NCBI GenBank assembly: GCA_023144875.1 | Contig: JAGLEW010000050.1 | Span: forward strand, 1,537 to 65,536 | Reading direction: 5' to 3' | Source of the DNA: Methylococcales bacterium | GTDB taxonomy: Bacteria > Pseudomonadota > Gammaproteobacteria > Methylococcales > Methylomonadaceae | DNA length: 64,000 nucleotides | Part shown: piece by piece, positions 8,936-48,027 of the stretch | Position numbering within the stretch: the stretch's first letter is position 1 | Layout of the letters: each line of letters opens with the position of its first letter | The notes under the pieces: generated by a model | Databases searched by the model: none | What the model was told of the DNA's origin: nothing | The model's input: the letters and a program-made list of their open reading frames with translations, nothing else | Translations under genes and position numbers: made by a program

Positions 8936-9000
8936 TCACTGATAATGTGGAACACCTAAAAGTGGCATTCTGATTTTTAGCTTTTTATTGGAAATAATGC

Positions 9001-12000
9001 GTGATAGCTCGGTTTATACGCTACTTTTTTTTTATCGGTCTTATTATTATTGCGGTTATTGTGACCGCGCTACGGATTTTTATTTTAACCATAGATCTTC
9101 ATAAAAATAGTTTAGAGCGTGTTCTTTCTGGGTTTATTGATACCACCGTCACTATCAAAACCGTTTCAGCAAAAATGTATCGGTTTTCTCCTGAAATTAT
9201 TCTACAAAATATTACCCTTTTTAATAGCACAAACCCGAAAGAAAATATTACCCTGAAAGAATTACGTATTAGAATTAATTTGTTTGAGGTTTTATTGCAC
9301 GATCAAATGATGCAATCGCTGCGTATTTCGTTGGTTGGGGCAAAACTTTCGGTTATTCGGCAAACCGATGGACGATTTTCGTTAGTCGGTTTAAAAGCAG
9401 GCGGTGGTGAGGGGCAGCCTTTATGGTTATTACAAGGTCAAAACTATCAGCTGATTGACAGCGAAATTAGCTGGCTTAATAAAAAAAGACACGGTAAAAC
9501 CTTAACCTTTAAAAACGTCAATGTGGTGATTAAAAATGATCAACGCCATAATCGACATCAAGCTTTTTTTTTAAGTCACCTGCCATCGGAATATGGTAAA
9601 AAATTACGCATAGCTATTGATATTAAAGGCGATGTTTTTCAGCCTAATAGCATACATGGTCAAGTCTTTGTTGAAGGTGAAGATATACAGTTTGCTAAAT
9701 TACTGACAGGGCAATTACCTTTTGAGTTAAAACTGAGCCAAGGCAGTGGGACATTTAAAGCGTGGGGGCAGATTAAAAACTCTGAATTAAAAGGTTTAAG
9801 CGGTCATATTCACGCAAAAGATTTAAGTTTACGCCGACAAAATAATAAAAAATTACATTTTAAATCACTTAAAGGACGGTTTAACTGGGCAACGAATGAT
9901 CAAAACTGGGCATTAAAAGTGGCTGATTTATATACGCAGGTTGCTCAAAAAAAGTTAAAAAGATCTGATTTTTTTTTGCATTATCAGCAAAACAAACGCT
10001 CTAAAAAACAAATAAGTGCTGAAATTAAGCAAGTTGATTTACAGTTATTTAGCCAGTTTTATCAATTTTTTAAGCCCTTAGCCGCAGACAGTGGACACAA
10101 TGATAAGGCAGTTTCCGTCACAGGGCTGTTAACAAATGGCCGTATTTTTGCCGATTTAACACAGCAACAGTATGCACTTAAGGCAGATTTTAAATACCTT
10201 GGGATAAAGGGGCTTGAGCAGATACCACAACTTTCCAATTTATCTGGCTCTATTCAAGGCACGGAGGCGCATGGTTATTTAACGATCAATAGTCAAAATA
10301 TAGCGTTTAAAACTCAAAGCTTCTTTCGGGCACCGCTTGAAATTTCTCAATTAAAAGGGCGTTTTCAATGGCGTCAATCAGCGCATCAATGGTTTTTAAC
10401 GACTGAAAAATTACGACTAAAAACCCCTTATTTTACAAGTACTCATACAATGAGACTGCAAATTTTTAAAAAAGAGAGACCGACCTCTATTGATTTGCAA
10501 ACTCATTTTAGAAATATAAAATCGGTGCAAGCGCTGAAACGTTATTATCCTGCGGGTATTATGGATAAAGAGGTACTAACTTGGCTTGATAATGCGTTTG
10601 TAACAGGTGAAGTAACCGCTGGACACTTGCAACTTTCAGGTAATTTAGCTGATTTTCCTTTTGATAAAAAAGACGGTGTTTTTAGCGTGAATTTTCATGT
10701 AAAGGATCTTGAATTAGCCTATGATGAGTTTTGGCCAAATTTTAAATCCATTCAAGCTGAGGTGGCTTTTTCAAAAGATAAGGTAGAAATTGCGGTCAAT
10801 CACGGGCAATCGGGTGATATAAAGGTTAAAAATGTACAAGTTAACATCACCTCTTTATCGGAAGCGGCTTTATTATCGCTCTCAGGTCAGGTGGAAAGTG
10901 AGGTGATGGCGGGGTTGAAATGGCTTAAAAGTACTCCGCTGAGCTTGCCTATCGATACGGTTTTAACCCAATTAACGGTTAACGGGCGTACAGAAGTTGA
11001 TTTAAATTTAACGATTCCTTTAAGCAATGAAGGGCATGAAACGGTAAAAGGCAAAGTCAAACTAGATCAAGCCAGTCTTTATATTAAACCCCTTGATTTA
11101 TCGGTTAGTGAGATTAAAGGGCAGGTTTTTTTTGATGAGAAAGGGTTTCATGGTCATAAATTACAAGCGAAAGCCTTTGATTCGCCTATTACGGCTCAAC
11201 TGAAAAAAAATTCAGCGGTTTTTAAAGTGGGTGTTAACGGAAAAATGGCCGTACAGCAATTGCGTACTTTGGTTGATTCTGCTTGGTTAGACTTAGCTTA
11301 TGGGCAAACGACTTATCAACTTAACCTTCAAATTCCAGTTGATGAGCAAAAAGAGACACAGGTTGAAATTCAGTCCAATTTGCAAGGGATCACATTAAAA
11401 TTGCCTATAGGGTTACAAAAAAAAATAGGCGAGAAAAAACCATTAACGATTGCATTTCCTATTAATGATCAACCATTATTACCGATTCGGTTATCGTACA
11501 ATAAAACCCTTAAAGCACGGGTGAAATTTGATAAACAACAGCAAAAACTGCATTCAGCCGCGATAAGCTGGGGAACGGGGGCAGTAAATTTTTTAACTAA
11601 GCCAGAAATTTATGTGCAGATTAATCAGCCACGTTTATCACCGCTCGCATGGATGGGCTTAATGGATCATCAAAAACCAGACATCAAAGACCAGATTACC
11701 TCGTCTCTACCTTTACGAATTGATATTGAAACCCCACAATTATGTATAAAGGATAAAAATTTAGGCGCGGTTAGTTTACAGATTAATCAGCGCAATAATA
11801 ATCTAAAAGGGTCTTTAAAAAGCACGATACTCAGTGGAAAATTTGAAGGCAATAAGGATGAATATAACTTAAATTTAGAGTTTATGGATGTTTCTAAATT
11901 AACGGAGTTAACCTTCCCTGTTATAAAAAAAACAAAGGCTTCCTTAAAAAAATTACCGCTTATTCAGGTTTATAGTAAAAAATTAATTTGGCGTGAGGTT

Positions 12001-25959: not shown

Positions 25960-28119
25960 TTATGAATGTTTACGTTTTTTATCGGCAATGAGGCTGGCTT
26001 GTGGATAATCAATTTTTCCTGTGGCTAATACGGGCAATTCACGAATAATAAAGATTGTTTTTGGAAAATGAATCGCCGACAATCCATCGCTATTTTTTTT
26101 CAACACTTGGATACTGGCTTGTGGTTGCGTGGTTAATAATAAAATCTGTTCGCCTTTTTTACTGTCTGGCACACTAAGCGCGGCATGTTGCGCCTTAGGC
26201 CATGTTTTTAGCGCTAATTCCTCAACCATCATGAGTGAAACCATTTCACCACCGATTTTAGCAAAACGCTTACTACGGCCTTTAATTAAAAGATAACCTT
26301 CGCTATCAACTTCAACAATATCCCCCGTGTCATACCAGCCTTCACCATAAATAGAACAAGGAGGGACTAATTCCCCAGGGTTTTTCGCTAATAAATAACC
26401 CATCATAATATTAGCCCCCGAAACATGAAGCTTTCCTCCGTTTTCAATGCCTTTAACCGTTTCTAACTTATAATTCATGGCGGGCAGAAAGCGTCCGACA
26501 GTGCCAACTTTACAATCAATGGGGGTATTGACTGAAATAACAGGGGCGGTTTCAGTGGCGCCATAGCCTTCTAAAATACGAATTCCGAATTTTTCGATCC
26601 ATTCATCACGGGTGGTGTTTTGTAGTTTTTCAGCGCCTGCAACCACATAACGCATACTATGAAAATCATAGGGGTGGGCTTTTTTAGCATATGCGGCTAA
26701 AAAGGTATTCGTACCAAACATAATCGTGGCATTTTGTTCATAGGCCATTTCAGGTACGATGCTATAGTGTAATGGGCTTGGATAATAAAACGTTTTGATG
26801 CCATTCATTAACGGTAAAATTGCCCCCGCCGTAAAGCCAAAGGAATGAAATAACGGTAAAAAATTAAGCACGGTGTCTTGGGCATTAAAACTAATGCGTG
26901 ACTTTATTTGGTGAATATTCGCTAAAATATTACGATGTGATAACACCACGCCTTTTGGCGTACCTTCTGAACCTGAGGTAAATAATACAACGGCGGCTTT
27001 ATTGGAATCATGATTTTTACTAGGGTACCAAAGCGTCGCGGTTTTGGATTTTAATACGGCACTGAGTTTATCAATCGTAGTAATTTTTTCGACTAAATCT
27101 TCCATATATAATAGGATTAAGAATTTACTTAAAGCGGCGGCTTCTTCTTCAAGCTTGCCTAATTCTATGAAACGTCGAGAGGTTAAAACGGTTTTGATTT
27201 GCGCGGTTTGACATGCTGAGACCATCCCTGTTGCGCCCATTGTATAATTAAGCATTGCAGGCACACGAGCGCTCACTTGCAGCGCAAAAATGGTTAATAA
27301 TGTTTTTTGTGAGTTTGGTAAGAAAACGCCAATATATTCGCCTTGTTGCGTGTGTGTGGTTAAAGTATCCGAGAGCGCAATGGATTGGGTGATTAAATCG
27401 TTATACGATAATGGAATACGATCTAAATCTTCGGAAATTTTATGATTACCTCCGTGTATGGTTCGCGCTTCGAGGACTGATGAAAATAATGTTTGTTGAT
27501 AATGGCTGGTGGTAAACATCATATTATTCATTAAATCGGCTAACGCACGACCACTTAATTGGCGGCGTGATTTTCCACGTAAGCGATCATCACAATGAAT
27601 TTTAGTTGGCGGTAAAATGTGAATGTGAATTTTAGGAAAAAAACGCAGTCGTACGATACGGCTTAATTTTGAAAAATGGGTAAATTCACCGCCTGAAATT
27701 CGAATAGGTAAGACGGTCGCCCCTGATTTATCGGCGACCATGCCTGTACCATCGTAAACTTTCATCATTGAGCCTGTGACTGTAATGCGGCCTTCTGGAA
27801 AAATAACGGTTTTAGTGCTGGTTTTTAAATGTTGAATTAAATTCTTTAACGACAATGGGTGGGTGGGATCCATTGGGAACACATTGGATAACCATAAAAA
27901 GGGCTTAAGCCACCATAATTGAGAAATTTGAGTATTAATGGCAAAGGTAATTTTATCGGGTAAAAAGACACCCAATAATAAGGGATCTAAAAAAGAACTG
28001 TGATTGGCGACAATTAAAACTCGATCCCCTGCCTGATGATAATTTTCAAGTCCATGAACTTCAACACGATAAATAACCCGTAAAAGGGCGGTTAATATTT
28101 TTTTTACAAGCGAATACAT
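25960..28119 (-). CDS. aas: Bifunctional 2-acylglycerophosphoethanolamine acyltransferase / acyl-ACP synthetase (Aas-like)
   Basis: 719 aa (E. coli Aas is 719). N-terminal PlsC-type HX4D (ANHSSFLDP). C-terminal AMP-binding motifs (FTSGSEGTPKGV, EGYGATETAPV, WYDTGDIV, GRSKRFAKIGGE). Confidence 0.85.
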   Translation of the reverse strand: MYSLVKKILTALLRVIYRVEVHGLENYHQAGDRVLIVANHSSFLDPLLLGVFLPDKITFAINTQISQLWWLKPFLWLSNVFPMDPTHPLSLKNLIQHLKTSTKTVIFPEGRITVTGSMMKVYDGTGMVADKSGATVLPIRISGGEFTHFSKLSRIVRLRFFPKIHIHILPPTKIHCDDRLRGKSRRQLSGRALADLMNNMMFTTSHYQQTLFSSVLEARTIHGGNHKISEDLDRIPLSYNDLITQSIALSDTLTTHTQQGEYIGVFLPNSQKTLLTIFALQVSARVPAMLNYTMGATGMVSACQTAQIKTVLTSRRFIELGKLEEEAAALSKFLILLYMEDLVEKITTIDKLSAVLKSKTATLWYPSKNHDSNKAAVVLFTSGSEGTPKGVVLSHRNILANIHQIKSRISFNAQDTVLNFLPLFHSFGFTAGAILPLMNGIKTFYYPSPLHYSIVPEMAYEQNATIMFGTNTFLAAYAKKAHPYDFHSMRYVVAGAEKLQNTTRDEWIEKFGIRILEGYGATETAPVISVNTPIDCKVGTVGRFLPAMNYKLETVKGIENGGKLHVSGANIMMGYLLAKNPGELVPPCSIYGEGWYDTGDIVEVDSEGYLLIKGRSKRFAKIGGEMVSLMMVEELALKTWPKAQHAALSVPDSKKGEQILLLTTQPQASIQVLKKNSDGLSAIHFPKTIFIIRELPVLATGKIDYPQASLIADKKRKHS

Positions 28120-37105: not shown

Positions 37106-38272
37106 TTAGTAAGAAGTGACGGGGACTTCTTTAGGTGTATTTTTATGGGACATTAATTTTATAGCGATGAGCGCTAGCACGGACACCACGATTAACCCGC
37201 CTGCTAATAAGGGGCGATAAGCAATCCATGCAATTGCAATGGTGATGAAAGCGCAAGGAATGGTGATTAAAAAGGCTAAAATTTTGGTGCCAATTTCAAC
37301 AATATTACCCAGTAAAGGGACGACATTGGCTAACATAGCTAGGGGTTGAAGTATCAAGGACAAGCCTCCCCACATAAGTAATAGACCAGCAATACGAAGC
37401 GCCCACGTCATAATCGTGTTTTCTTCATGTGCGAGTGTGAATAAGGTTTTTGCTTCAATATTTCCTGACTTTAAAAAGTCAATTGGACTGCCTGCTTTGG
37501 TTTCATAAGCGATAAAACTATCGCCTTTTTGTTGCGCCATTACCGTTATTTCCATAGGGCTAACCATTTGAAAATGAATTTTCATATCACCAATAGCAGG
37601 ATCGCCTTCGCTGGTACCCAAGTAAAAATGATCGCCCATAATCGCCACTTTTTTATCCGCTAAGGTTTTTGGCGCGGTAAAACTGTGCAAGCTTAATGTA
37701 GATTTTTGAGTAATGCGATTAATCTGTGATGGATTTAGCTTGAAGTGGCCGACTGTTACATTTTTAGCTTTCCATGTTTTATAAGGAAAGGGGAGCGTTG
37801 GGTTTGTATGACCTAAGCGTTTAAATTGACTGGATTCAATTTGATGATTGCTCCATTCTTTTTCATAGGTGTAAGTCGTTTTTGTTTCTTTGGTACCGCC
37901 AATTTTTTCTGTGGTTTCGGTTGTTTTATGCTCATTCCATTGATACATGGAGATATGACGGACTAATTTAATTGCCGTGGCTGAAACATTGAAGACTTCA
38001 TCCTTTAACACATCCTGAGACGAGGCAAGCCCTTGAGTGTGGATTAACTGGCCATTATTTTCCAAATCAATAAGCTCTGAGGAAACAGAAATAACTAATT
38101 CTTGACCTTCGTTTAAACTATCATAGCGCTCAACCGAGTGGCCTTCATTCCACCATAACAGGGGAAAGGCGGCAATAAATAATACAATACCAAAAAAAAT
38201 TCCCGTTAAAGAACTCCCCATACGGCTGAACCAATTTTCGCGGCTAATATCGGTGAAAGAATCATTATTCAT
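37106..38272 (-). CDS. DUF1625 / TMEM43-like membrane protein
   Basis: N-terminal TM helix followed by PLLWWNEGHSVE, a large soluble middle region, and a C-terminal cluster of 3-4 TM helices. This architecture is recalled for the TMEM43 family. Confidence 0.6.
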   Translation of the reverse strand: MNNDSFTDISRENWFSRMGSSLTGIFFGIVLFIAAFPLLWWNEGHSVERYDSLNEGQELVISVSSELIDLENNGQLIHTQGLASSQDVLKDEVFNVSATAIKLVRHISMYQWNEHKTTETTEKIGGTKETKTTYTYEKEWSNHQIESSQFKRLGHTNPTLPFPYKTWKAKNVTVGHFKLNPSQINRITQKSTLSLHSFTAPKTLADKKVAIMGDHFYLGTSEGDPAIGDMKIHFQMVSPMEITVMAQQKGDSFIAYETKAGSPIDFLKSGNIEAKTLFTLAHEENTIMTWALRIAGLLLMWGGLSLILQPLAMLANVVPLLGNIVEIGTKILAFLITIPCAFITIAIAWIAYRPLLAGGLIVVSVLALIAIKLMSHKNTPKEVPVTSY

Positions 38273-38385: not shown

Positions 38386-39297
38386 ATGTTAAGTATTATC
38401 ATTGCAGTGGCGTTAGATTTATATTTTGGAGAACCAAAAAAAGGTCACCCTTTAATTGCCTTTGGGAGATTGGTCGATAAAGTTGAACATATTTTTTTTA
38501 TCGAATCCTTATCACCCGTATTACAAAGAACGGTGGGAGTTTTAGCATGGTTATTAATTATGATTTTATTTTTAGTGCCCCTTTATTTTTGTCAACAAAT
38601 AGATTTTTTTAATTGGGTGTTTGCCCCGATTGTTTTATATTTTTGTATTGCCGCGACCAGTTTAAAACAACATGGACAAGCGGTATTTAACGCCTTACAA
38701 CAGAATGATTTAACGTTAGCACGAGAAATGGTGGCTCGAATTGTGAGTCGTGATTGTCAAGAAATGGATGTGCTAGCGGTGCGTAGAGCCAGTTTAGAAT
38801 CTGTTTTAGAGAATGGGGCGGATGCTGTTTTTGCGCCTATTTTTTGGTTTTTAATTGCAGGTCCTGTTGGTGTTGTGTTGTATCGTTTGAGTAATACCTT
38901 AGATGCCATGTGGGGGTATAAAAGCACACGGTATTTATATTTTGGCTGGGCGGCGGCACGTTTGGATGATGTTTTAAATTTTATTCCCGCGCGTTTAACC
39001 GCACTGAGTTATATTTTGTTGGGGAATACGGCCTTAGGATGGCGTTGTTGGCAAACACAGGCGGCTTTTTTAGACAGTCCTAATGCTGGGGTAGTGATGA
39101 CGGCAGGTGCTGGAAGTTTAAACCTGCAATTAGGTGGGGTTGCTCTGTATCATGGCATTGAAAAACAAAAGCCTTTATTCGGTGGAAAAAGGTTACCTGA
39201 AAATCAGGATCTTTATCGTGCGAATCAACTGATTGATCGAACGTTAATGTTATGGGGTGGGGGGGTGTTAATCGGCCTGCTTATTAAAATAATTTAA
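38386..39297 (+). CDS. cbiB: Adenosylcobinamide-phosphate synthase CbiB (CobD)
   Basis: 303 aa polytopic protein with GEPKKGHPLIAFGRLV, LESVLENGADAVFAPIFWF and SPNAGVVMTAGAGSLNLQLGG motifs. Confidence 0.88.
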   Translation: MLSIIIAVALDLYFGEPKKGHPLIAFGRLVDKVEHIFFIESLSPVLQRTVGVLAWLLIMILFLVPLYFCQQIDFFNWVFAPIVLYFCIAATSLKQHGQAVFNALQQNDLTLAREMVARIVSRDCQEMDVLAVRRASLESVLENGADAVFAPIFWFLIAGPVGVVLYRLSNTLDAMWGYKSTRYLYFGWAAARLDDVLNFIPARLTALSYILLGNTALGWRCWQTQAAFLDSPNAGVVMTAGAGSLNLQLGGVALYHGIEKQKPLFGGKRLPENQDLYRANQLIDRTLMLWGGGVLIGLLIKII

Positions 39298-39300
39298 AAA

Positions 39301-39332
39301 TTAAGGGATTAAAATAATTGATAACCCCTTAA
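39301..39332. terminator. Weak hairpin between convergent cbiB and the hns-like gene (possible bidirectional terminator)
   Basis: TTAAGGG, an 18-nt loop, then CCCTTAA. Followed by GGTTTT on the plus strand and TTTTT on the minus strand. The stem is short and the loop large. Confidence 0.3.
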
Positions 39333-39346
39333 GGTTTTAATGTGGT

Positions 39347-39679
39347 TTAAATCTCAAATTCTTCGATGCCTCTGCCAGAATCAACCAATGCTAATAACCA
39401 GTTTGGTTTTCTACCACGACCTGACCAGCCTTGGGTTGGGTTGTCTGGGTTTCTATAACGGATGGTAGACGTTTTTTTAGAAGAAGAGGCTAAAATTTCT
39501 TCTAAAGCAAAACCTGATTCATTCGCAATACGGGTCATTTTATTAATGATATCATTTCGGTCTTGCTCTTTACGACGTGTAATTGCATCATTAATAGTTA
39601 TTTGAATATTTTGTAAATCTTTTAAAGGAATTTCCACAAAATCTTGGGTGGTCATTTTATTTAATGCTGAAAGTTTCAT
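39347..39679 (-). CDS. H-NS-family nucleoid-associated protein
   Basis: 110 aa. N-terminal coiled-coil and a C-terminal DNA-binding motif, IRYRNPDNPTQGWSGRGRKPNW...GRGIEEFEI (compare E. coli TWTGQGRTPAV...LDDFLI). Confidence 0.8.
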   Translation of the reverse strand: MKLSALNKMTTQDFVEIPLKDLQNIQITINDAITRRKEQDRNDIINKMTRIANESGFALEEILASSSKKTSTIRYRNPDNPTQGWSGRGRKPNWLLALVDSGRGIEEFEI

Positions 39680-39839
39680 AGTTCTTTTAGGGGTTGGAGA
39701 AAAATTATAATGAATATCGTTTTTTTAAAGGACGTTTTTATTATTATATATTCGATTAAAACATCTATGATAAGGGTATTTTAAAAAATCTTCAATGGGC
39801 TTGGACGATTAAACCCGTGCAAATGCTTTTGTGGGAGGA

Positions 39840-40358
39840 TTAATAGTGCAATAAAGAATGAGTCTGGTAGTTTGATAGTTTTTCTTTTCCATTTAATTCA
39901 TCCAACTCAATCAGAAAAGCACAGGCTTTTATTTGCGCACCTAATGATTCAATTAATTCACAACTGGCCTTTGCCGTTCCACCTGTGGCTAAAACATCAT
40001 CAATCACTAATACTAAATCATTTTGAGTTAACGCATCGCTGTGTATTTCTAAACAGGCGGATCCATATTCTAGGTTATATGAAATTGATTTGACATTGTA
40101 TGGCAGTTTTCCCGCTTTTCTAAGTGGAATGAAGCCGACGCTTAATTCTAAGGCGACTAAAGAACCAAAAATAAAACCTCGAGCTTCCATCCCTACAACA
40201 GCGGTAATATTTTGATTGAAAAAAGGTTGAGCTAATTGTTGTATTGATTGCTTTAAGGCTTGTGGGTTTTTAAGCAAGGGACTAATATCTTTAAAAATAA
40301 TACCAGATTTTGGAAAGTCTGGAATATCTCGGATGTTGTCTTTTAAAAGGTCGGTCAT
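39840..40358 (-). CDS. apt: Adenine phosphoribosyltransferase
   Basis: IRDIPDFPKSGIIFKDISPLL and the PRPP-binding motif VLVIDDVLATGGTA. Confidence 0.95.
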   Translation of the reverse strand: MTDLLKDNIRDIPDFPKSGIIFKDISPLLKNPQALKQSIQQLAQPFFNQNITAVVGMEARGFIFGSLVALELSVGFIPLRKAGKLPYNVKSISYNLEYGSACLEIHSDALTQNDLVLVIDDVLATGGTAKASCELIESLGAQIKACAFLIELDELNGKEKLSNYQTHSLLHY

Positions 40359-40381
40359 GATGTTATTAAAGGCGTATTTTT

Positions 40382-41701
40382 TTAAGGAGAGTCTTCAGTG
40401 AGCAATTCATCCAACATATAGTGATGTAATTTTTCAATCCAAGCGGGTTCAAATAAAGGTTCAATGAAATTATAATTTAAAGTCAATTGTTGCTGATATT
40501 CGCAACTTAGTAAGGCAATGGCGGGTGGGCTGCTGATTTGGCAAAAATGTCGAATGCCCGTAATTTTACGATTGCATAATGACTCGCTGGTTCGTGCGGT
40601 TAAATTAACCTGTGAAAACCAAAAAGAGCTGCGTTCTGTTTTATGCGTATAAGACAGCCGCAAGTTTTCACCGTGTTTTTTTAATGATAAAAAACGAGCC
40701 GCCCACATAATCGGTAAAAAGGCATAATCAAGTTGTTGCCGAATAACGGTTTTATTTTGTTGTTTTAGGTGGGTAAATAATTGCTTTCGATTGGCGATCA
40801 ATTGTCGTGAGGCTTGGGCAAATAAGACCCCTACATGATTGCCTAATAAAGGCGTTAGCGCTTTTTGTTTGCGTAAATTAAAGGCATAAGGCACACAATA
40901 GGCTTCTCCTGATTGTTGAGGGTTCATTTTTTCTAAAGCACGCATGAAACAGCCAATATAATAAAGGCTGCTGCCTGTAATGCCTGTTTGTGTCTTGGCG
41001 AATTGATTAATTTTATGACTTTGTTCTACACTGAGTTGATAGTGAAGCGCGCGAAGTTTTTTAGGCGATTTTTTAGCGGCATGAATAATACTTTGTTGCT
41101 GATCAAGGGTTGTAATATAACGTTTGGCTTTTAGAAATAATTGTATTTTTTTCCAGAGGCTAAATTTATTTAATTGTCGGGTAACCAGTGCTTCGGGTGT
41201 TGGAACATGAAATTTTTCACGCTGATTTTTATCGTCCGTCGCCAGATATTGTAAAATTAAATTAATGCTAACAGCATCACAGAGGGGGTGCATCCAGCGA
41301 AATAATAAAACACAGCGGGTATCAGAATGAATCAGATGAAAGCTCAAGGGCATTATGGTTTCACGCGCTTGGACTTGATTCATTAAGTTTGCAATGATTT
41401 GCTCAATATCGAGTGTAGAAGTGGCATGATATTGGAAAAAAATAGAGTCGATAGTGTCGCGCTGGCACCAATGAAAACGATTGCCTTGTTGTTGCAAACT
41501 AGTAAGAATAATAGGAAAGTTTTGAGTTAGCGCCTTAATTTTATCTTCTAATACGGTGATTTCAGGCAACGCATCAAGTTCAAGTGCCATTCCACACAGA
41601 CTGCCGACCCCTGTTTCGTGACGAATTTCTTCATCCATTGCCAGTGTAAAATAATCAGCAGGATTAAGGGCCTGCAAAATATTCGCTTGATTTTTGCTCA
41701 T
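40382..41701 (-). CDS. Stand-alone condensation-domain-like acyltransferase (HxxxD superfamily: NRPS C / WS-DGAT / PapA5 type)
   Basis: 439 aa. LLFRWMHPLCDAVSINLILQYL at ~residue 135 matches the position and context of the HHxxxDG motif, and length and layout fit a single C domain. The start overlaps the stop of the carrier-protein gene (ATGA). Family assignment is by motif only. Confidence 0.5.
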   Translation of the reverse strand: MSKNQANILQALNPADYFTLAMDEEIRHETGVGSLCGMALELDALPEITVLEDKIKALTQNFPIILTSLQQQGNRFHWCQRDTIDSIFFQYHATSTLDIEQIIANLMNQVQARETIMPLSFHLIHSDTRCVLLFRWMHPLCDAVSINLILQYLATDDKNQREKFHVPTPEALVTRQLNKFSLWKKIQLFLKAKRYITTLDQQQSIIHAAKKSPKKLRALHYQLSVEQSHKINQFAKTQTGITGSSLYYIGCFMRALEKMNPQQSGEAYCVPYAFNLRKQKALTPLLGNHVGVLFAQASRQLIANRKQLFTHLKQQNKTVIRQQLDYAFLPIMWAARFLSLKKHGENLRLSYTHKTERSSFWFSQVNLTARTSESLCNRKITGIRHFCQISSPPAIALLSCEYQQQLTLNYNFIEPLFEPAWIEKLHHYMLDELLTEDSP

Positions 41702-41934
41702 GATTTATGGTGCAAAATCCATGCTTCTAATCGGTTGAAAGTTTTCACATTGTCAGGATCGATTTCAGTATCAGGAAGTGTCACCTTAAATTGGTCTTCA
41801 ATAAACATAATGAGGCGCATAATGCCCATGCTATCTAATCCTGCCTCAAGCAGATCTTCATCATTGCCAAAGGTTTGAGGATCGGCGACAAAGATTAATT
41901 CTTCAAAAATAAATTCACGGAGTTGTGGTTTCAT
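41698..41934 (-). CDS. Acyl/peptidyl carrier protein, DltC-like
   Basis: 78 aa from ATG 41934. Ser35 sits in DLLEAGLDSMGIMRLIMFIEDQF (compare DltC EEGLLDSFGTVELLLAIENRF). The ORF track extends to 41994 (98 aa), but that adds a hydrophobic extension overlapping the bpt 3' end. Confidence 0.65.
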   Translation of the reverse strand: MKPQLREFIFEELIFVADPQTFGNDEDLLEAGLDSMGIMRLIMFIEDQFKVTLPDTEIDPDNVKTFNRLEAWILHHKS

Positions 41935-41975
41935 AAAAACGGGAAGGTAGAATGTATATAAACAGAGAAAAAACG

Positions 41976-42674
41976 TTAGGTAATTAATTGCCATTGCTGA
42001 TTAATAAAGCCTTCTAATGGCTGATAGTGGGTTTTATAGGCCATTTTTTGACATTGCTCAACCCAATAACCTAAATAAACATAGGTAAGGTTTAATTGAT
42101 GTGCGTGTTCAATTTGCCACAGTACTGCATAAACACCTAAGCTGTAGGCTGATAAACTAGGCTCAAAAAAAGTATAAACTGCGGACAGACTTTGGTCTAA
42201 AAAATCAACCACGGCGACGGCGGCAAGTTGGTTGTCAATAAAAAATTCTACAAAGGAGGTGGTACACCAATCACTGCTTAAAAACTGAATATATTCTTCA
42301 GAAGTCGTGGTCGCCATGATGCTATCTGGGTGTTTAAATTGTTGATAACGAAGATAAAGGTCAAAATGTTGTTGTTTAAAAACAGGGGCTTGAATGATGA
42401 CTTTTGTGTTATTATTTTTTTTTAAACAGCGTTTTTGGTTACGGCTTGCTTTAAAACTTTGCACAGGGATGCGACAGGAAATACATTGGGCGCATTCTGA
42501 GCATCGTGGGCTATAAACCTCATTACCACTGCGGCGAAAACCATGCACTAATAGTTTTGAATACAAAGGGCTATCAAGTAAAAAACGGGGATAAACAAAG
42601 GCGGACTGTGAGGTTTTATCCTCGAGATAACTGCATTTTTGTGGGTTGCTAATGGTCAGTGAAATAGAAGTCAT
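41976..42674 (-). CDS. bpt: Aspartate/glutamate leucyltransferase Bpt (bacterial ATE-type aminoacyl-tRNA-protein transferase)
   Basis: ATE_N Cys-rich region (CSYLEDK..., GFRRSGNEVYSPRCSECAQCISCRI) and ATE_C (YVYLGYWVEQCQKMAYKTHYQPLE). ATG 42674 overlaps the aat stop (ATGA). The ORF track starts at 42713. Confidence 0.85.
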   Translation of the reverse strand: MTSISLTISNPQKCSYLEDKTSQSAFVYPRFLLDSPLYSKLLVHGFRRSGNEVYSPRCSECAQCISCRIPVQSFKASRNQKRCLKKNNNTKVIIQAPVFKQQHFDLYLRYQQFKHPDSIMATTTSEEYIQFLSSDWCTTSFVEFFIDNQLAAVAVVDFLDQSLSAVYTFFEPSLSAYSLGVYAVLWQIEHAHQLNLTYVYLGYWVEQCQKMAYKTHYQPLEGFINQQWQLIT

Positions 42675-43366
42675 GCGTTTTTCCACGCGGAAGGAAGAGG
42701 CGGTTGATTGCAATAAGTATTGAGTTGGCGAATAAAATGATTTCGGTCAATTTCATACGCGCCTAAACTAACCAGATGATCGCTGTGAACTTGGCAATCA
42801 ATGAGTTGATAGCCCCATTGTTGAAGCAGTTGGATTAAATGAACAAACACCACTTTAGAGGCATTGGTTTGGGTGTGGAACATAGATTCGCCAAAAAAAA
42901 CCTGACCAATCGCCACCCCATAAAGCCCTCCAACCAGTTGACCTTGCGACCATGCTTCGACAGAATGTGCCACGCCTTGATGATGTAATTGTTGATACGC
43001 ATGCATCATTTCCTCGCTAATCCATGTGCCTTCCGCTTTTTCGCGGCTTGAACGGCAGGATTTTATCACAAGGGAAAAAGCACGATTAATACTAAGCTCA
43101 AATCGTTGTTGACGTATCACTTTGGCAAGACTTCGAGAAATTTTTAAGCGATCGGGGGTGACAATTAGCCTTGGGTTTGGTGACCACCAAAGAATTGGTT
43201 CATCGGGGTTATACCAAGGGAAAATACCATTTTTATAGGCATTTATAAGGCGTTTTACCGATAAACATCCCCCGACAGCAAGCAATCCATCCGGTTCTGT
43301 TAAGGCATTCTCTAACGATGGAAAAGCTTGACTGGGGTCATATGGATTTAATTGAATTAATTCCAT
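42671..43366 (-). CDS. aat: Leucyl/phenylalanyl-tRNA-protein transferase
   Basis: GLLAVGGCLSVKRLINAYKNGIFPWYNPDEPILWWSPNPR and GGLYGVAIGQVFFGESMF motifs. Confidence 0.9.
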   Translation of the reverse strand: MELIQLNPYDPSQAFPSLENALTEPDGLLAVGGCLSVKRLINAYKNGIFPWYNPDEPILWWSPNPRLIVTPDRLKISRSLAKVIRQQRFELSINRAFSLVIKSCRSSREKAEGTWISEEMMHAYQQLHHQGVAHSVEAWSQGQLVGGLYGVAIGQVFFGESMFHTQTNASKVVFVHLIQLLQQWGYQLIDCQVHSDHLVSLGAYEIDRNHFIRQLNTYCNQPPLPSAWKNA

Positions 43367-43376
43367 GTATTTAATC

Positions 43377-44606
43377 TTATGTGATTATGTTTGCGTGTAC
43401 ATAAAGCTGTTTTTTAAGTGGTTCTAGCGGCACTTTTTCAATCATTTCATTAGCAAAAGCGGCGGTTAATAAGGCTTTAGCGGCATTAATATCCAGTCCA
43501 CGTGATTGCAAATAAAAAATAGATTTTTCATCGAGTTGCCCAATGGTAACGCCATGCGCGCATTTGACATCATCCGCATAAATTTCTAGCTGTGGTTTGG
43601 TATCAATTTCAGCCTTATTTGACAGCAATAAATTACGGTTATTCATGGCTGAGTCGGTTTTTTGAGCGTCTTTAGCCACGAATACACGTCCTTGAAAAAC
43701 ACCACGCGCGCGATCATTTAAGATGCCTTTATAGAACTCACGACTGATACCATAAGGCTGGTTATGATTAATACGCGTATGATTATCAATATGTTGACGT
43801 TTCTCACCAAGGTATAAGCCGTTTAATGAACATTCAGCCGCTGTTTCTAAATCGGTATGAATATCATTGCGAGCGATCAAGCCACCAAATGCAAAATTAT
43901 GATGATTAAAAATACTGTGAGGCTGTTGTTTGCAATAAGTGCCGCCAAAATGATACGCAGTTTGGGATTCAGTTTGAAGTTTATAAAGCGTCAATGTGGC
44001 ATTTTTTGCTAAAAATACCTCATTAACCGCGGCGGTTAGGCTGTTTGATTCGCCAATAAAGGTTTCTATTATTTCAAGTGTTGAAAATTCGGCGCCAATA
44101 ATAAGATTACGAGTGGCTGCCCTTGTTTCAGAGCCTAAAGCGTAATGTAAAATTTGTATTGGTTTGCGTGTCGATGCTTGTGGCGCAAGTTTTATAAAAA
44201 AACCATCAGTGAAATAAGCGCTGTTGTAGCTAATAAAATTATGGGTTTTATTGCACACCGCTTTCCCTAAATAAGGCGTTATTTTATCAGGGTTTTCTTC
44301 GATTAATTGACTGATGCTAGTAAGTTCTAGCGCCTCATCTATTTGGGTTAAGCGTGAATATTTTTTTGAAAAATGACCGTCAATAAACACCATGATCCAT
44401 GCATCATCCAGCATGTGTGATGTTAAAAGTGTCTCATTGATGGTTTCAATGTGAGGTTGCGTTTTGAAGGATTTTTTTTCCAGCGCGGATAAATTGGTAT
44501 AACGCCATTCTTCCTCATTCGTTTTTGGAAAACCATTTTCTGAAAAAAGTTCGAGTGCATTTTGTCGAAAGTTATTTAAACTGTCCGATTTAAGTTTTGT
44601 ATTCAT
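43377..44606 (-). CDS. sufD: Fe-S cluster assembly protein SufD
   Basis: 409 aa. C-terminal SufB/D beta-helix signature (GVFQGRVFVAKDAQKTDSAMNNRNLLLSNKAEIDTKPQLEIYADDVKCAHGVTIGQLDEKSIFYLQSRGL). Overlaps the sufC stop by 4 nt. Confidence 0.8.
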   Translation of the reverse strand: MNTKLKSDSLNNFRQNALELFSENGFPKTNEEEWRYTNLSALEKKSFKTQPHIETINETLLTSHMLDDAWIMVFIDGHFSKKYSRLTQIDEALELTSISQLIEENPDKITPYLGKAVCNKTHNFISYNSAYFTDGFFIKLAPQASTRKPIQILHYALGSETRAATRNLIIGAEFSTLEIIETFIGESNSLTAAVNEVFLAKNATLTLYKLQTESQTAYHFGGTYCKQQPHSIFNHHNFAFGGLIARNDIHTDLETAAECSLNGLYLGEKRQHIDNHTRINHNQPYGISREFYKGILNDRARGVFQGRVFVAKDAQKTDSAMNNRNLLLSNKAEIDTKPQLEIYADDVKCAHGVTIGQLDEKSIFYLQSRGLDINAAKALLTAAFANEMIEKVPLEPLKKQLYVHANIIT

Positions 44607-45358
44607 ACACTTGCCGCTTGTGTTTCTAGGTCATTGTAGCCTTTTGCTTCTAATTCTAAAGCTAAATCCGCATCCCCTGATTTGATGATTTTTCCATCGG
44701 CCAATACATGGACAAAATCAGGTTTAATGTAGTCAAGTAGGCGTTGATAATGGGTAATCATTACAAAACTTCGCTGTTCTGAGCGCAGAGCATTAACGCC
44801 ATTAGCGACAATTTTTAAGGCGTCAATATCCAGCCCTGAATCGGTTTCATCTAAAATGCACAATTGTGGCTCCATAACCGCCATCTGTAAGATTTCATTG
44901 CGTTTTTTTTCACCGCCTGAAAAACCTTCGTTAACTGCACGGTATAAAAATTTTTCATTCATGTCCAATAAACGCATTTTTTCTTTGACCCAGACTAAAA
45001 AATCCATTGCATCAATTTCGGTTTGACCTTTGTGTTTTCGGATGGCGTTTAGCGCGGCTTTGAGTAGATAGATATTGCTGACCCCTGGGATTTCAATCGG
45101 GTATTGAAATGCTAAAAAAACACCTTCACGAGCGCGTGTTTCAGGGGCTAAAGCGAGTAAATCTTGACCATTATAGGTGATTGAACCCTCTGTTACCGTA
45201 TAGCCACTTTTGCCTGATAAAATATGAGAAAGGGTGCTTTTTCCTGCGCCATTTGGCCCCATAATGGCGTGAACCTCCCCTGCCTTGACTTCTAAATTAA
45301 GACCTTTGAGGATTTGTTTGTCTCCGACATTGGCGGTTAAGTTTTTAATACTAAGCAT
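44603..45358 (-). CDS. sufC: Fe-S cluster assembly ATPase SufC
   Basis: Walker A GPNGAGKST, signature FSGGEKKRNEI, Walker B LCILDETDSGLD and H-loop ITHY. Confidence 0.92.
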   Translation of the reverse strand: MLSIKNLTANVGDKQILKGLNLEVKAGEVHAIMGPNGAGKSTLSHILSGKSGYTVTEGSITYNGQDLLALAPETRAREGVFLAFQYPIEIPGVSNIYLLKAALNAIRKHKGQTEIDAMDFLVWVKEKMRLLDMNEKFLYRAVNEGFSGGEKKRNEILQMAVMEPQLCILDETDSGLDIDALKIVANGVNALRSEQRSFVMITHYQRLLDYIKPDFVHVLADGKIIKSGDADLALELEAKGYNDLETQAASV

Positions 45359-45400
45359 AGGTGTATTCCAAAGGGTTACAGATAAAAATAAAGCGGATGA

Positions 45401-46519
45401 TTAAAGGGCGTGGGATAACGTTTTTTGATACAGTGCGGCGTAACTTTTTCCCATTTTTTGACCCGTGAATAAAGTTTGATAGCGCTGTCGTGCCGCTTGG
45501 CCATACTTTTTAATTAAAACAGGATTGTTGCTTAGGGTTGTCATAGCTTGGTGTAATTTTTCAGGGTCATTGGGTGGAATGACGAGACCTGTTTCTTTGT
45601 GTGCATTAACAAAACTGGTGCCTGTGCCTAGTTCGCATGAAATCATTGGTTTCGCATTCATCGCCGCCTCAAGCAACGTTACGCCGAAGGCTTCTGAGCG
45701 CAGATGTGAAGGAAAGACAATGGCCAAGGATAATTGAATCAAAGCAACTTTTTCTTCATTACTCACGTAGCCTAAAAAGCGGACATTTTTAAGGTTTAAT
45801 GCCTTGGCTTGGGATTTTAAAGTGGCTTCTTCAGGGCCTGAGCCTGTAATAATAATCAGGGCTTTGGTTTTTTGAGCCGCCGCTAATAAAATATGCAAGC
45901 CTTTGTAATAGCGCAAAACCCCGATAAAAAGAAAAAACCCGTTCCCCACTTTTTCACGCATATTATCAAGTGTCTCTTGTGTGGCGATAGGGTAGCTTGC
46001 TTCATCAATACCGATGGGGATAATAGCTACTTTATCGGCATAATGTTTTAAAACGGGGCTGGTTTTTGCATAATTAGGTGAGGTGGCAACAATGGTTTGC
46101 ATCTGGTTAAGAAACAAGCGTTTCAATGGGCGGTAAAGTTTTAAAAAGCTTTTTTGACGCACAATATCAGACTCATAAGTCACAATCGAAGGCTTTTTAA
46201 CCCGTGCGAGTATATGGAGAACATCCGCAAATGGCCACGGAAATTGATAATGAATCACATCTGCCCATTCAACCTGTTGTTTAAAGGCTGAGAGCGCTGA
46301 AAAAGAAAGACCACAAGAGGCAATTTCAAGGTGATTTTTAGCGCGATAAACGTAAACTTCATCATAGTCAATGATCGCTGGCTTAGGTTGATGGCTTAGG
46401 CAAAAGACACGGCTTTCAACGCCCTCAGTGTGCGTGGTTTTACAAATTTGACGAATAACTTCCTCAAGCCCGCCTTGTGTATCGGGAAAAAAAGTGCGAT
46501 AAACATGCAAAACACGCAT
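45401..46519 (-). CDS. Glycosyltransferase family 4 (GT-B, retaining)
   Basis: N-terminal MRVLHVYRTFFPDTQGGLEEV and the EX7E region SEAFGVTLLEAAMNAKPMI. The ORF track starts at 46573. ATG 46519 removes the overlap with the upstream gene. Confidence 0.8.
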   Translation of the reverse strand: MRVLHVYRTFFPDTQGGLEEVIRQICKTTHTEGVESRVFCLSHQPKPAIIDYDEVYVYRAKNHLEIASCGLSFSALSAFKQQVEWADVIHYQFPWPFADVLHILARVKKPSIVTYESDIVRQKSFLKLYRPLKRLFLNQMQTIVATSPNYAKTSPVLKHYADKVAIIPIGIDEASYPIATQETLDNMREKVGNGFFLFIGVLRYYKGLHILLAAAQKTKALIIITGSGPEEATLKSQAKALNLKNVRFLGYVSNEEKVALIQLSLAIVFPSHLRSEAFGVTLLEAAMNAKPMISCELGTGTSFVNAHKETGLVIPPNDPEKLHQAMTTLSNNPVLIKKYGQAARQRYQTLFTGQKMGKSYAALYQKTLSHAL

Positions 46520-46524
46520 AGCCC

Positions 46525-48027
46525 TTAAGCCATTTGAGCAGAAGATTGCCATTGACGCATTAATACCATGCAATCGTGGTTGAGTTGTTGTACCATTTCT
46601 TCACTGTCCGCTTCGTTATAACAGCGTAATTCGGGGGCATTTCCTGAGGCTCTAAAGTGAACGACATCACCGCTGGCAAGGGTTACTCGAACACCATCGG
46701 TGGTATTGATTGCAAACGGCACATCTTCAAGGCTGGATAATTTTGCCGTCATGTTTTTTAAATTAGTTTTTTGATCGGCTGAGACCATATCGGCTAGAAT
46801 TTTTTGACTTAAGTCACTCGGAAACTCTTTAATACGGTCGCTGGTAGTAAAACGAGAGGGTAGGGAGGCCACTAATCCTGCAATAGTGGTTTTCTTTTTT
46901 AATGTCAGCATTAAAATAGCTAGCGGTACAATAATGGCATCGCGTGTAGGCAGGGCGGCTAATATTTTACCATCTTGATGAATGTCTCGACCTTGTAAAA
47001 CGCCCCCGTTTGCCTCATAACCCATGACAATTTCCGCTTCTGAGGCCAGTGCTTGCATAGCTTCAATGACAAAAGGAGAGCCAATGCGGGTTCTGACGGT
47101 TCGGGTGAAGTAGTTTGACTCTTCCAAGACTGAATTACTGCTAACAGGCGTAACAACGGCATCAGAATTTAAATAGTAAGCACATAATAGCCCTGCAATG
47201 TCGCCTCGTAACCAAACCCCATTCTCATCTCCGACCAGTGGGCGATCACCATCACCATCGGTTGAAATTAAACAATCGAATTGATGATCTTGAGACCATT
47301 TACGCGCTAATTTTATATCTTCGGGGCGAATCGCTTCGGTATCGACGGCCACAAACTGTTCAGATCGTGCCAGAGAAGTCACATTAGCCCCTAAGTCGGT
47401 TAAAATAGTTTTTAAGCAATCTCTGGCGACCGATGAATGTTCATAAAGTCCAATATGTTGACCCTGCAGACAATTTTCAGGGAAAAAATTCACAAATCGT
47501 TGTATATAGTGCTGTTCTGCTTGTGGGTTGAGTTCTGGTAATAGCGCGGGGGCTATTAATTGACCGCTATCTAAAAATTTTCCATCGGGGATTTCAACCG
47601 TTTGTGCCCGAATAGCCATTTCATCCGTTTTTAAAATTTCACCGTCGGCTTTATTAAATTTAATGCCGTTACGATCATCAGGGATATGACTGCCTGTGAC
47701 CATAATGGTTGGGCAGTTTTTATATAAGCCATAAAGCGCAATCGCAGGGGAAGGAATGGTACCGTAATTAACAGCTTTAAAGCCTTTGTCGGTAATTGCC
47801 TGAGCGACCACGGCCATAATGTGATTTGTACTGCCGCGTAAATCTCCAGCAATACCAATTTCATCCCCTGATTTTAAATTGTCTAATGTTTGTAAAAAAG
47901 CACGAGTATAAACCCAGCAGACTTTATCACTCATATTTATAACAAGACCACGAACGCCACTGGTACCAAAAGAGACGGTACTTTGTTTCATTAAGCTTGC
48001 AACTGAAATTGTATTTTTTAAAGCCAT
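46525..48027 (-). CDS. Phosphomannomutase/phosphoglucomutase-family enzyme
   Basis: FGTSGVRG, active-site Ser loop VTGSHIPDDRNG and metal loop STDGDGDRPLV. Confidence 0.85.
   Translation of the reverse strand: MALKNTISVASLMKQSTVSFGTSGVRGLVINMSDKVCWVYTRAFLQTLDNLKSGDEIGIAGDLRGSTNHIMAVVAQAITDKGFKAVNYGTIPSPAIALYGLYKNCPTIMVTGSHIPDDRNGIKFNKADGEILKTDEMAIRAQTVEIPDGKFLDSGQLIAPALLPELNPQAEQHYIQRFVNFFPENCLQGQHIGLYEHSSVARDCLKTILTDLGANVTSLARSEQFVAVDTEAIRPEDIKLARKWSQDHQFDCLISTDGDGDRPLVGDENGVWLRGDIAGLLCAYYLNSDAVVTPVSSNSVLEESNYFTRTVRTRIGSPFVIEAMQALASEAEIVMGYEANGGVLQGRDIHQDGKILAALPTRDAIIVPLAILMLTLKKKTTIAGLVASLPSRFTTSDRIKEFPSDLSQKILADMVSADQKTNLKNMTAKLSSLEDVPFAINTTDGVRVTLASGDVVHFRASGNAPELRCYNEADSEEMVQQLNHDCMVLMRQWQSSAQMA

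Follow-up and report, generated by a model that had tools for sequence, protein, structure and literature searches.

In the 64,000-nt stretch of Methylococcales DNA analyzed here (the window; G+C content, ~38%), a small carrier protein and a stand-alone enzyme of the condensation superfamily are encoded by two overlapping genes between bpt and apt. Our analyses suggest that this pair, a peptidyl carrier protein (PCP) and a condensation-type (C-type) enzyme, here called PCP-C, is one half of a conserved Methylococcales proline-to-pyrrole cassette that became split off from its other half, and that the carrier is loaded in trans by its own ligase rather than by the adjacent aminoacyl-tRNA-protein transferases Aat and Bpt. 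We give this reading a probability of roughly 0.7. It draws on the gene order of related loci, on a genome of the same clade in which the two halves lie on separate contigs, and on the selection still acting on the pair, and it differs from that of a first-pass annotation of the same DNA, which had proposed a ligase-less module fed with aminoacyl-tRNA. The features that concern us are as follows.

41698-41934, minus strand: carrier protein, 78 amino acids (aa), a type II peptidyl/acyl carrier (PCP), PF00550
40382-41701, minus strand: stand-alone condensation-superfamily (C-type) enzyme, 439 aa, assigned from predicted structure and motif
41267-41299, minus strand: active-site motif RWMHPLCDAVS, residues 135-145 of the C-type enzyme, an xHxxxD variant of HHxxxDG

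Gene order in related loci

Related loci were taken from species-representative genomes (80 loci) and, for the others, found by protein look-up; scored with tblastn, they gave a nonredundant set of 87 (numbered with the prefix L). In the first two relatives, from Methyloprofundus (AP023240) and a gammaproteobacterial metagenome-assembled genome (MAG), the genes for the PCP and the C-type enzyme are followed in a row by those for an AMP-binding protein (478 aa) and a protein with an acyl-CoA dehydrogenase (ACAD) fold (361 aa). The carrier gene is directly upstream of the C gene in 84 of the 84 loci that show the region. A stand-alone adenylation enzyme (the ligase) is encoded by the next gene in 54 of the 71 loci that could be assessed, the other 16 of the 87 being too short to judge. 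It is displaced 3 to 7 kb downstream in three loci (L023, L024, and L080), and in 14 it is missing from a stretch of at least 3 kb. The idea of a ligase-less module thus fails for the family as a whole, in which a dedicated ligase is the usual neighbor. Of the 49 loci that bear a ligase and have enough sequence past it, 44 also encode the ACAD-fold dehydrogenase (DH).

A neighbor-joining tree of the C protein has ligase and DH on all of its deepest branches, and loci without a ligase fall into no fewer than five distinct clades. We conclude that the order of four genes is the ancestral state and that it was broken up on at least five occasions. Adjacency to aat-bpt, which the first-pass annotation took as a possible functional link and proposed to score across orthologous neighborhoods, occurs upstream of PCP-C in only 4 of the 87 loci (the window, L003/L004, L008, and L009). 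These belong to a single shallow clade whose fifth member, L007, has other neighbors. Given the four-gene cassette of the relatives and the confinement of the adjacency to one clade, the position of PCP-C beside aat-bpt is a lineage-specific accident of gene order, an outcome that the first-pass annotation itself had named as refuting its proposal. That the PCP and the C-type enzyme are a functional pair is shown by their translational coupling, by an adjacency without exception, and by four distant relatives in which they are fused.

The cassette is undergoing remodeling in several directions. The ligase is kept and the DH lost or truncated in L013, L015, L030, L035, and L088 (a 62-aa remnant at L088 9556-9744), and the ligase of L006 is broken into ORFs of 323 and 98 aa (8157-9600). 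The MAG DUBW01 (Methyloprofundus sp. UWMA-0312) has two diverged PCP-C pairs, L017 and L037, one in a full cassette with a PEMT-like gene and the other at a contig end; either they are paralogs or the bin is mixed. Directly after the DH, L001 (11894-12373) and nine other loci of the Methyloprofundus clade (L014, L017, L018, L025, L029, L044, L045, L059, and L080) encode a membrane methyltransferase of the PEMT/ICMT family (159 aa), a hint that the clade's product is methylated.

The ligase and dehydrogenase of the relatives

The relatives' ligase matches the amino acid adenylation model TIGR01733 at an E value of 1.9e-80 and 270.7 bits, under the 317.4-bit cutoff. Among stand-alone enzymes in the PDB, it matches the L-proline-[prolyl carrier protein] ligases 7thn and 6o6e best and DltA after them, and PltF ranks first (5.5e-27) when the substrate-pocket segment is searched. 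The specificity code, DLFYLALVCK, is the same as that of PltF, DLLYLALVCK, at 9 of 10 positions; of 54 Methylococcales loci, 50 conserve the nine code positions that were read across loci. The relatives' DH has its best PDB matches in AnaB (4irn; 3e-63), Bmp3 (6cxt_B), and PigA (5zw0), and it matches the NCBIfam models for RedW and PigA at ~1e-83, with 281 bits against a cutoff of 650 for RedW. We infer from this similarity and from the code that the chemistry of the cassette is the conversion of carrier-bound proline to pyrrole.

A probable split of the cassette, and purifying selection on the pair

A tblastn search of the 64-kb window with the orthologous ligase and DH proteins returned only a weak match to Aas at 26005-27015, so the first-pass observation that no adenylating enzyme adjoins the pair was correct and extends across the whole window. 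The MAG DAOUTG01 (GCA_030626845.1), a member of the window's clade, has aat-bpt-PCP-C on contig DAOUTG010000050 (L009) and a ligase (P0327) together with a DH on contig DAOUTG010000019 (L099). The tetranucleotide composition of these two contigs correlates at r = 0.956, the highest value of all those compared, and their G+C contents are 36% and 34%. The order in L099 is a MoCF-type gene, the ligase, the DH, a 103-aa protein, and a DUF2799 protein, followed on the opposite strand by MMPL and LolA-like genes. A second orphan ligase-DH locus, L095, matches L099 in the two genes that follow the pair and has a comparably low G+C content. Among the best matches listed, the ligases that are nearest in sequence and yet not beside a C gene, P0327 among them, form a group of their own. 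By extension, the genome of the window probably also has its ligase at a second site. One candidate for that ligase, P0331, was rejected because it belongs to another MAG, GCA_023139345.1.

Some further features of these loci are worth recording. The 102- to 103-aa protein encoded after the orphan ligase-DH pairs (L095 10550-11427, L098 10535-11404, and L099) has a signal-peptide-like N terminus and short internal repeats, and downstream of it is a gene for a DUF2799 lipoprotein-like protein; neither gene has a Pfam-defined function. In the window, a TMEM43-family membrane protein is encoded at 37106-38272 (minus strand), ~2 kb from PCP-C, and a 59%-identical counterpart lies ~6 kb from the orphan ligase-DH locus of MAG DAOUTG01 (L098 16457-17434 / L099 10370-11347). 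The presence of this gene near both halves may be the trace of an ancestral whole cassette beside it.

Purifying selection continues to act on the split PCP-C pair. Comparison of the window with L003 (dS, ~1) gives ratios of nonsynonymous to synonymous substitution rates (dN/dS) of 0.10 (carrier) and 0.15 (C-type enzyme), compared with 0.12 for aat, 0.12 for bpt, and 0.08 for apt. For the C-type enzyme, dN/dS is 0.08 to 0.15 in five pairs from split clades and 0.05 to 0.20 in six pairs from intact clades. Because the two kinds of clade are alike in this respect, a decaying remnant is unlikely.

The carrier protein

The 78-aa protein was correctly recognized at first pass as a carrier with its attachment residue at Ser35: it scores 38.2 bits against PF00550 (gathering score, 20.8; E value, 1.8e-9). 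Ser35, the predicted phosphopantetheine-attachment site, lies within LEAGLDSMGIMRL (codon 41830-41832), in a GLDSM motif that is present in 50 of 54 clustered carrier orthologues and replaced by GMDSM in one. The best PDB sequence matches are the stand-alone PCPs 2my5, PltL (2n5h/6o6e_E), and the Bmp1 carrier 6cxt_A, together with DltC at ~6e-6. The likeness to DltC noted at first pass holds for the context of the serine but not for the protein as a DltC equivalog, as both cutoffs are failed (TIGR01688, 22.8 versus 52.35 bits; NF003464, 30.1 versus 68 bits). No DltB/DltD-type families occur among the Pfam annotations of the genes flanking the 87 loci. The window's carrier is 70 to 78% identical to the carriers of loci that bear a Pro-type ligase.

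The condensation-fold enzyme

The 439-aa protein is 100% identical to hypothetical protein KAG10_00300 of a Methylococcales MAG and has no match at an E value of ≤1 in Pfam, NCBIfam, or PDB sequences. In particular, it matches neither PF00668 nor PF03007 nor PF06974, so that membership in the WS/DGAT family (PF03007/PF06974) was set aside, and single-sequence (phmmer) and profile searches of PDB sequences gave chance matches only. PF00668 reaches 18 to 22 bits on relatives of the enzyme, below the gathering score of 30.6, and one orthologue is flagged with PF00668 in precomputed annotation. The fold is visible in the predicted structure. An AlphaFold2 (AF2) model built on an alignment of 47 orthologues (alignment A1) has a mean predicted local distance difference test score (pLDDT) of 89.6 and a predicted template modeling score (pTM) of 0.90, and Foldseek returned 282 PDB matches at an E value of ≤1e-3. 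The 50 best listed of these are nearly all C, E, Cy, or X domains of nonribosomal peptide synthetases (NRPSs) or stand-alone C-family proteins (AzeD and PapA5), and the chloramphenicol acetyltransferase (CAT)-fold acyltransferase TRI3 is also among them. AzeD (8s6l) is the top match (E value, 1.9e-18; template modeling [TM] score, 0.75; probability, 1.00; identity, 12%), and PapA5 matches at 1.1e-15. The model thereby confirms the predicted two-lobed, pseudo-dimeric CAT fold of the condensation superfamily. The first-pass assignment to condensation-type enzymes is borne out by fold and by the xHxxxD motif, but not by the three hidden Markov models (HMMs) named above.

His138 (codon 41288-41290) and Asp142 (codon 41276-41278) are invariant across the 47 orthologues. 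In distant full-length representatives, whose consensus is WHHxLMDAxG, His138 is kept in 126 of 126 and Asp142 in 125 of 126. The first His of HHxxxDG is replaced by M, I, or L in the window's clade and is His in 55 of the 126 distant representatives; at the last position, the window has Ser145, where 116 of the 126 have the Gly of the motif. The alignment of the orthologues and one made from distant members can be matched over their full length (hhalign probability, 100%; E value, 1e-59). The family comprises 349 homologues in a collection clustered at 90% identity, with 604 representatives at 50% clustering, and the named homologues among the best 120 of the 349 are all from Methylococcales or related gammaproteobacterial MAGs. 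A tblastn search of plasmids with a distant family member gave no match. Four proteins (P0141, P0241, P0260, and P0269; 542 to 571 aa) are natural fusions of an N-terminal PP-binding domain, with GxDS at about residue 36, to the C-fold.

The wider cluster

Clustering of all flanking ORFs of the related loci brought out further recurrent partners. A flavin-dependent halogenase is encoded in 32 loci, its family representative in L061 carrying WYWLIP, a WxWxIP-type motif. A PRK09185-type ketosynthase (KS) occurs in 27 loci, an ApeP-like dehydratase in 20, and FabG2, above its equivalog cutoff, in 18; genes for a chain length factor (CLF), MMPL, and a LolA-like protein (LolA_3) also recur beside the cassette. 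None of these aryl-polyene-type genes is found within the window.

A compact version is found in Methylotuvimicrobium buryatense 5G (L086 3739-14057; NZ_KB455575.1 region 3029530-3050852), where nine genes form a divergent unit: KS, FabG2, ApeP-like dehydratase, KS, and halogenase on one side and PCP, C, ligase, and DH on the other. The PDB matches of its halogenase are CndH, Mpy16, Bmp2, and PltA. The flanks are unrelated (an RES/Xre toxin-antitoxin pair, PfkB, an alginate-export porin, and an ABC transporter), and the layout is repeated in L053, L057, L021, L033, and L048. The unit is a candidate biosynthetic gene cluster (BGC) in a genetically tractable methanotroph.

A scan with a six-sequence alignment located distant family members in metagenomes, in loci that encode a halogenase, PCP, C, a flavin adenine dinucleotide (FAD) oxidoreductase, and an AMP ligase; upstream of these stand KS-CLF-LolA-DUF3261-MMPL, the set for export and assembly that typifies aryl-polyene clusters. 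The distant loci have no dehydrogenase, and their AMP ligases lack the amino-binding Asp and are therefore activators of aryl or acyl acids. One way to read this is that a subclass of aryl-polyene-like clusters is built around PCP-C as its constant element and that, within it, the Methylococcales have swapped an aryl-acid ligase for a PltF/PltE-like proline-to-pyrrole front end. Whether the outcome is an aryl-polyene-type lipid pigment with a proline-derived, often halogenated pyrrole head, the C-type enzyme carrying out transfer or release, we would put at rather less than even odds, and we offer it as a tentative suggestion.

Aryl-polyene clusters have been reported as the leading BGC class of Methylococcaceae (PMC11964084; also PMC12810054), and neither of these papers mentions a prolyl/pyrrole module or a C-fold partner. 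Nor does the xanthomonadin paper mention a C-fold protein. Literature searches on the specificity code, on methanotroph prolyl-carrier or pyrrole chemistry, and on aryl polyenes together with pyrrole, halogenase, or prolyl returned no description of the cassette. Within the literature searched, the PCP-C-ligase-DH cassette thus appears to be undescribed.

The locus in the window and its neighbors

PCP-C lies in a packed minus-strand run that reads phosphoglucomutase-like gene, glycosyltransferase gene, sufC, sufD, aat, bpt, the 78-aa ORF, the 439-aa ORF, apt, and hns. Its immediate upstream neighbors are as follows.

42671-43366, minus strand: aat, PF03588 (E value, 1.6e-77), TIGR00667 (231.8 bits versus a cutoff of 143.55)
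41976-42674, minus strand: bpt, ATE_N and ATE_C, NF002341 (298 bits versus a cutoff of 252)
41976-43366, minus strand: aat-bpt pair, upstream neighbors of PCP-C, NCBIfam equivalogs

The junctions are just as first described: aat and bpt share an ATGA overlap, a 41-nt spacer separates bpt from the carrier ORF, the carrier stop and the ATG of the C-type enzyme share another ATGA overlap, and apt starts 23 nt past the stop of the C-type enzyme. Aat and Bpt both score above their own NCBIfam equivalog cutoffs and, as judged from these family matches, are ordinary N-degron aminoacyl-tRNA-protein transferases that stand outside the PCP-C system. A scan of positions 39000-46800 for promoter- and terminator-like sites gave counts at or below shuffled expectation and was uninformative.

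The sufC-sufD pair (43377-45358, minus strand), between the glycosyltransferase gene and aat, has no adjoining sufB, sufS, or sufE, and L003 shares the order glycosyltransferase, sufC-sufD, aat. In 24 loci, an ORF of 86 to 98 aa runs antisense to the carrier gene (41618-41878, plus strand, in the window; L007 1634-1924, minus strand, for example); most likely it is a by-product of the strongly conserved carrier sequence and not a gene. A program-made ORF list starts the carrier at the ATG at 41994 (41698-41994, minus strand; 98 aa), overlapping bpt. The start at 41934 is the plausible choice because the orthologues are 78 aa long in most loci.

Proposed pathway and alternative explanations

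The ancestral order would have been PCP, C-type enzyme, PltF-like L-proline adenylation enzyme, and prolyl-PCP dehydrogenase of the PltE/RedW/PigA/AnaB kind. In the lineage of the window, PCP-C would have landed between bpt and apt, with the ligase-DH pair left at another locus. With the cassette split in this way, the carrier would be loaded in trans by its normal ligase and not by Aat or Bpt. The ligase would place L-proline onto Ser35 of the holo-carrier to give prolyl-S-PCP, and the flavoprotein would oxidize this to pyrrole-2-carboxyl-S-PCP. The tethered pyrrolyl group could then be halogenated where a halogenase is present. Finally, the C-type enzyme, acting through His138, would transfer the acyl group held on the PCP, as such or after polyketide extension, to a nucleophile, in this way either handing off a starter unit or releasing a finished chain. 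The position of the C gene after the PCP gene is that expected with a donor carrier.

Several observations weigh against this proposal. The DH and ligase of the relatives score far under the NCBIfam equivalog cutoffs (RedW, PigA, and DltA), and the substrate is therefore assigned from similarity and the specificity code only. Both genes are absent from the window's 64 kb, and, judged by accession, none of the best 120 matches per search was a ligase or DH attributable to the window's MAGs. The evidence from DAOUTG01 depends on MAG binning. Five loci hold a ligase without a DH, and several lack polyketide genes within 10 kb, so the cassette may work without pyrrole formation or chain extension. 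The nearest structural neighbor of the C-type enzyme, AzeD, is no transferase but a dehydratase with a free small molecule as its substrate.

The alternatives differ in what they ask of the missing ligase and of the C-fold. The first-pass annotation suggested a ligase-less module, modifying an envelope lipid or a protein N terminus, whose carrier would be charged from aminoacyl-tRNA by the co-transcribed Aat and Bpt. The tight, single-strand packing of aat-bpt-PCP-C-apt, with its ATGA overlaps and gaps of 41 and 23 nt, fits such a module, as do the lack of promoter- or terminator-like sites above chance between the genes from aat to apt and the lack of a ligase within 64 kb. However, we regard it as very improbable: the adjacency is limited to 4 of 87 loci in one clade, a dedicated Pro-type ligase is present in 57 loci, a clade member with the same arrangement has its ligase on another contig, and Aat and Bpt are ordinary equivalogs. 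We know of no Aat or Bpt that works on a thiol acceptor. What stands of the original idea is loading in trans, which is likely for this lineage; the supply of the aminoacyl group by Aat and Bpt does not, given the dedicated ligase of the relatives. A true loss of the proline ligase and DH in the sublineage of the window and L003, with PCP-C re-purposed and another acyl group loaded by another enzyme (Aas or a fatty acyl-AMP ligase [FAAL], for example), would account for the missing matches to the window's MAGs and for the purifying selection on PCP-C, and other lineages that lack the DH alone show that the cassette can be remodeled. We nevertheless consider such a loss unlikely, as the absence is drawn from incomplete MAGs and the best 120 matches, the nearest checkable clade member retains ligase-DH, selection on the C-type enzyme cannot be told from that in intact clades, and the carrier remains 70 to 78% identical to those of Pro-ligase loci.

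About equally unlikely, in our estimation, is a C-fold protein that does not condense at all and acts on a PCP-tethered intermediate as an AzeD-like dehydratase, an epimerase, or a scaffold like the X domain of glycopeptide systems. The top Foldseek match is AzeD, in which the first His of HHxxxDG is likewise replaced, and the scores of E, Cy, and X domains are close to those of C domains. Yet AzeD uses a free molecule and has no partner carrier, whereas the C-fold family is always coupled or fused to a PCP; the PCP precedes C as a donor carrier would; a pyrrolyl thioester offers nothing for dehydration or epimerization; and the wider family retains the full WHHxLMDAxG motif. That PCP-C is a decaying, nonfunctional leftover of a broken cassette is hard to credit, even though it lies apart from all partner genes and neighboring lineages have pseudogenized ligase or DH genes (the split ligase of L006 and the 62-aa remnant of L088). 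Both ORFs are intact, Ser35, His138, and Asp142 are retained, dN/dS is 0.10 to 0.15 at a dS of ~1, and the arrangement is conserved in several species of the clade. The reading of PCP-C as half of a split proline-to-pyrrole cassette, served in trans by its own ligase, is thus the one we prefer.

Implications and comparison with known systems

The pairing of a carrier with tRNA-dependent transferases in the window is an accident of gene order and not a new loading chemistry. What it draws attention to is a C-fold family without a Pfam or NCBIfam model or a sequence-detectable solved relative. Its members are coupled to a carrier without exception, and the family is conserved throughout an order of methane oxidizers of environmental importance and their animal symbionts. 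In many genomes this family is tied to polyketide genes of aryl-polyene type and to a front end, resembling PltF/PltE/PltA, that would lead from proline to halopyrrole. The actual "aryl polyene" product of Methylococcaceae may therefore differ from the assumed one, as surveys (PMC11964084) omit the module. If a pyrrole-headed pigment is indeed made, the window would show that the PCP-C core is separable from its ligase and yet kept by selection. The tractability of M. buryatense, with its compact nine-gene version, makes the question directly testable.

The stand-alone carrier has its counterparts in the type II NRPS pyrrole cassettes of the Plt, Red, Pig, Bmp, and Ana systems (PltF/PltL/PltE, with or without PltA; RedM/RedO/RedW; PigI/PigG/PigA; Bmp4/Bmp1/Bmp3/Bmp2; and AnaC/AnaD/AnaB). 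The relatives of the window share with these cassettes a stand-alone ligase with 9 of 10 positions of the PltF code and an ACAD-fold DH matching AnaB, Bmp3, and PigA best. They also share a flavin halogenase of the carrier-dependent type, with Mpy16, Bmp2, and PltA among its relatives. Unlike in those cassettes, the partners score below equivalog cutoffs, the polyketide genes are of aryl-polyene type and not type I polyketide synthase (PKS) genes, and a C-fold enzyme, found in none of those systems, is translationally coupled to the carrier. The window itself has the carrier and C genes only.

VibH, SgcC5, and PapA5 are stand-alone condensation enzymes that use a carrier-bound donor and a free acceptor. 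The C-type enzyme resembles VibH (vibriobactin), SgcC5 (C-1027), and PapA5 in being a discrete C-fold protein of ~430 to 450 aa with a His-xxx-Asp motif and a discrete carrier partner, but searches of PDB sequences detect no similarity, and its first His is replaced. In its stand-alone form and its substituted first His it is like AzeD, the azetidomonamide dehydratase of Pseudomonas aeruginosa (8s6l; C_standalone clade) and its closest structure. The kinship to the C_standalone clade is structural only, as predicted from the model; phmmer and profile searches of PDB sequences gave nothing at an E value of <1 that would relate the two. AzeD, moreover, dehydrates a free bicyclic carbamate without a dedicated carrier, whereas the C-type enzyme of the window has an invariant partner carrier.

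The wider cluster recalls the aryl-polyene and xanthomonadin type II PKS clusters (ApeA-R; the ligase XanA2 and the ACP XanC), with which the relatives share the ApeP-like dehydratase (PF22817), FabG2 (TIGR01831, above cutoff), the PRK09185 KS, CLF (PF13723), LolA, DUF3261, and MMPL; in distant relatives an aryl/acyl-type AMP ligase also follows PCP-C. In contrast to the aryl-polyene clusters, the Methylococcales ligase is of the amino acid type (Asp235 present, Pro code) and is paired with a prolyl-PCP dehydrogenase. To our knowledge, canonical Ape clusters list no C-fold protein. The DltA/DltC and AlmE/AlmF/AlmG systems, which modify the envelope by way of a carrier, likewise have a small stand-alone carrier, and the relatives' ligase resembles DltA; here, however, the transferase has a C-fold, and no DltB/DltD- or AlmG-type partner appears among the Pfam annotations of the neighbors. 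By analogy, then, the system seems closest to a type II NRPS pyrrole cassette joined to a C-type enzyme in the manner of VibH, SgcC5, and PapA5 and set within an aryl-polyene-type cluster.

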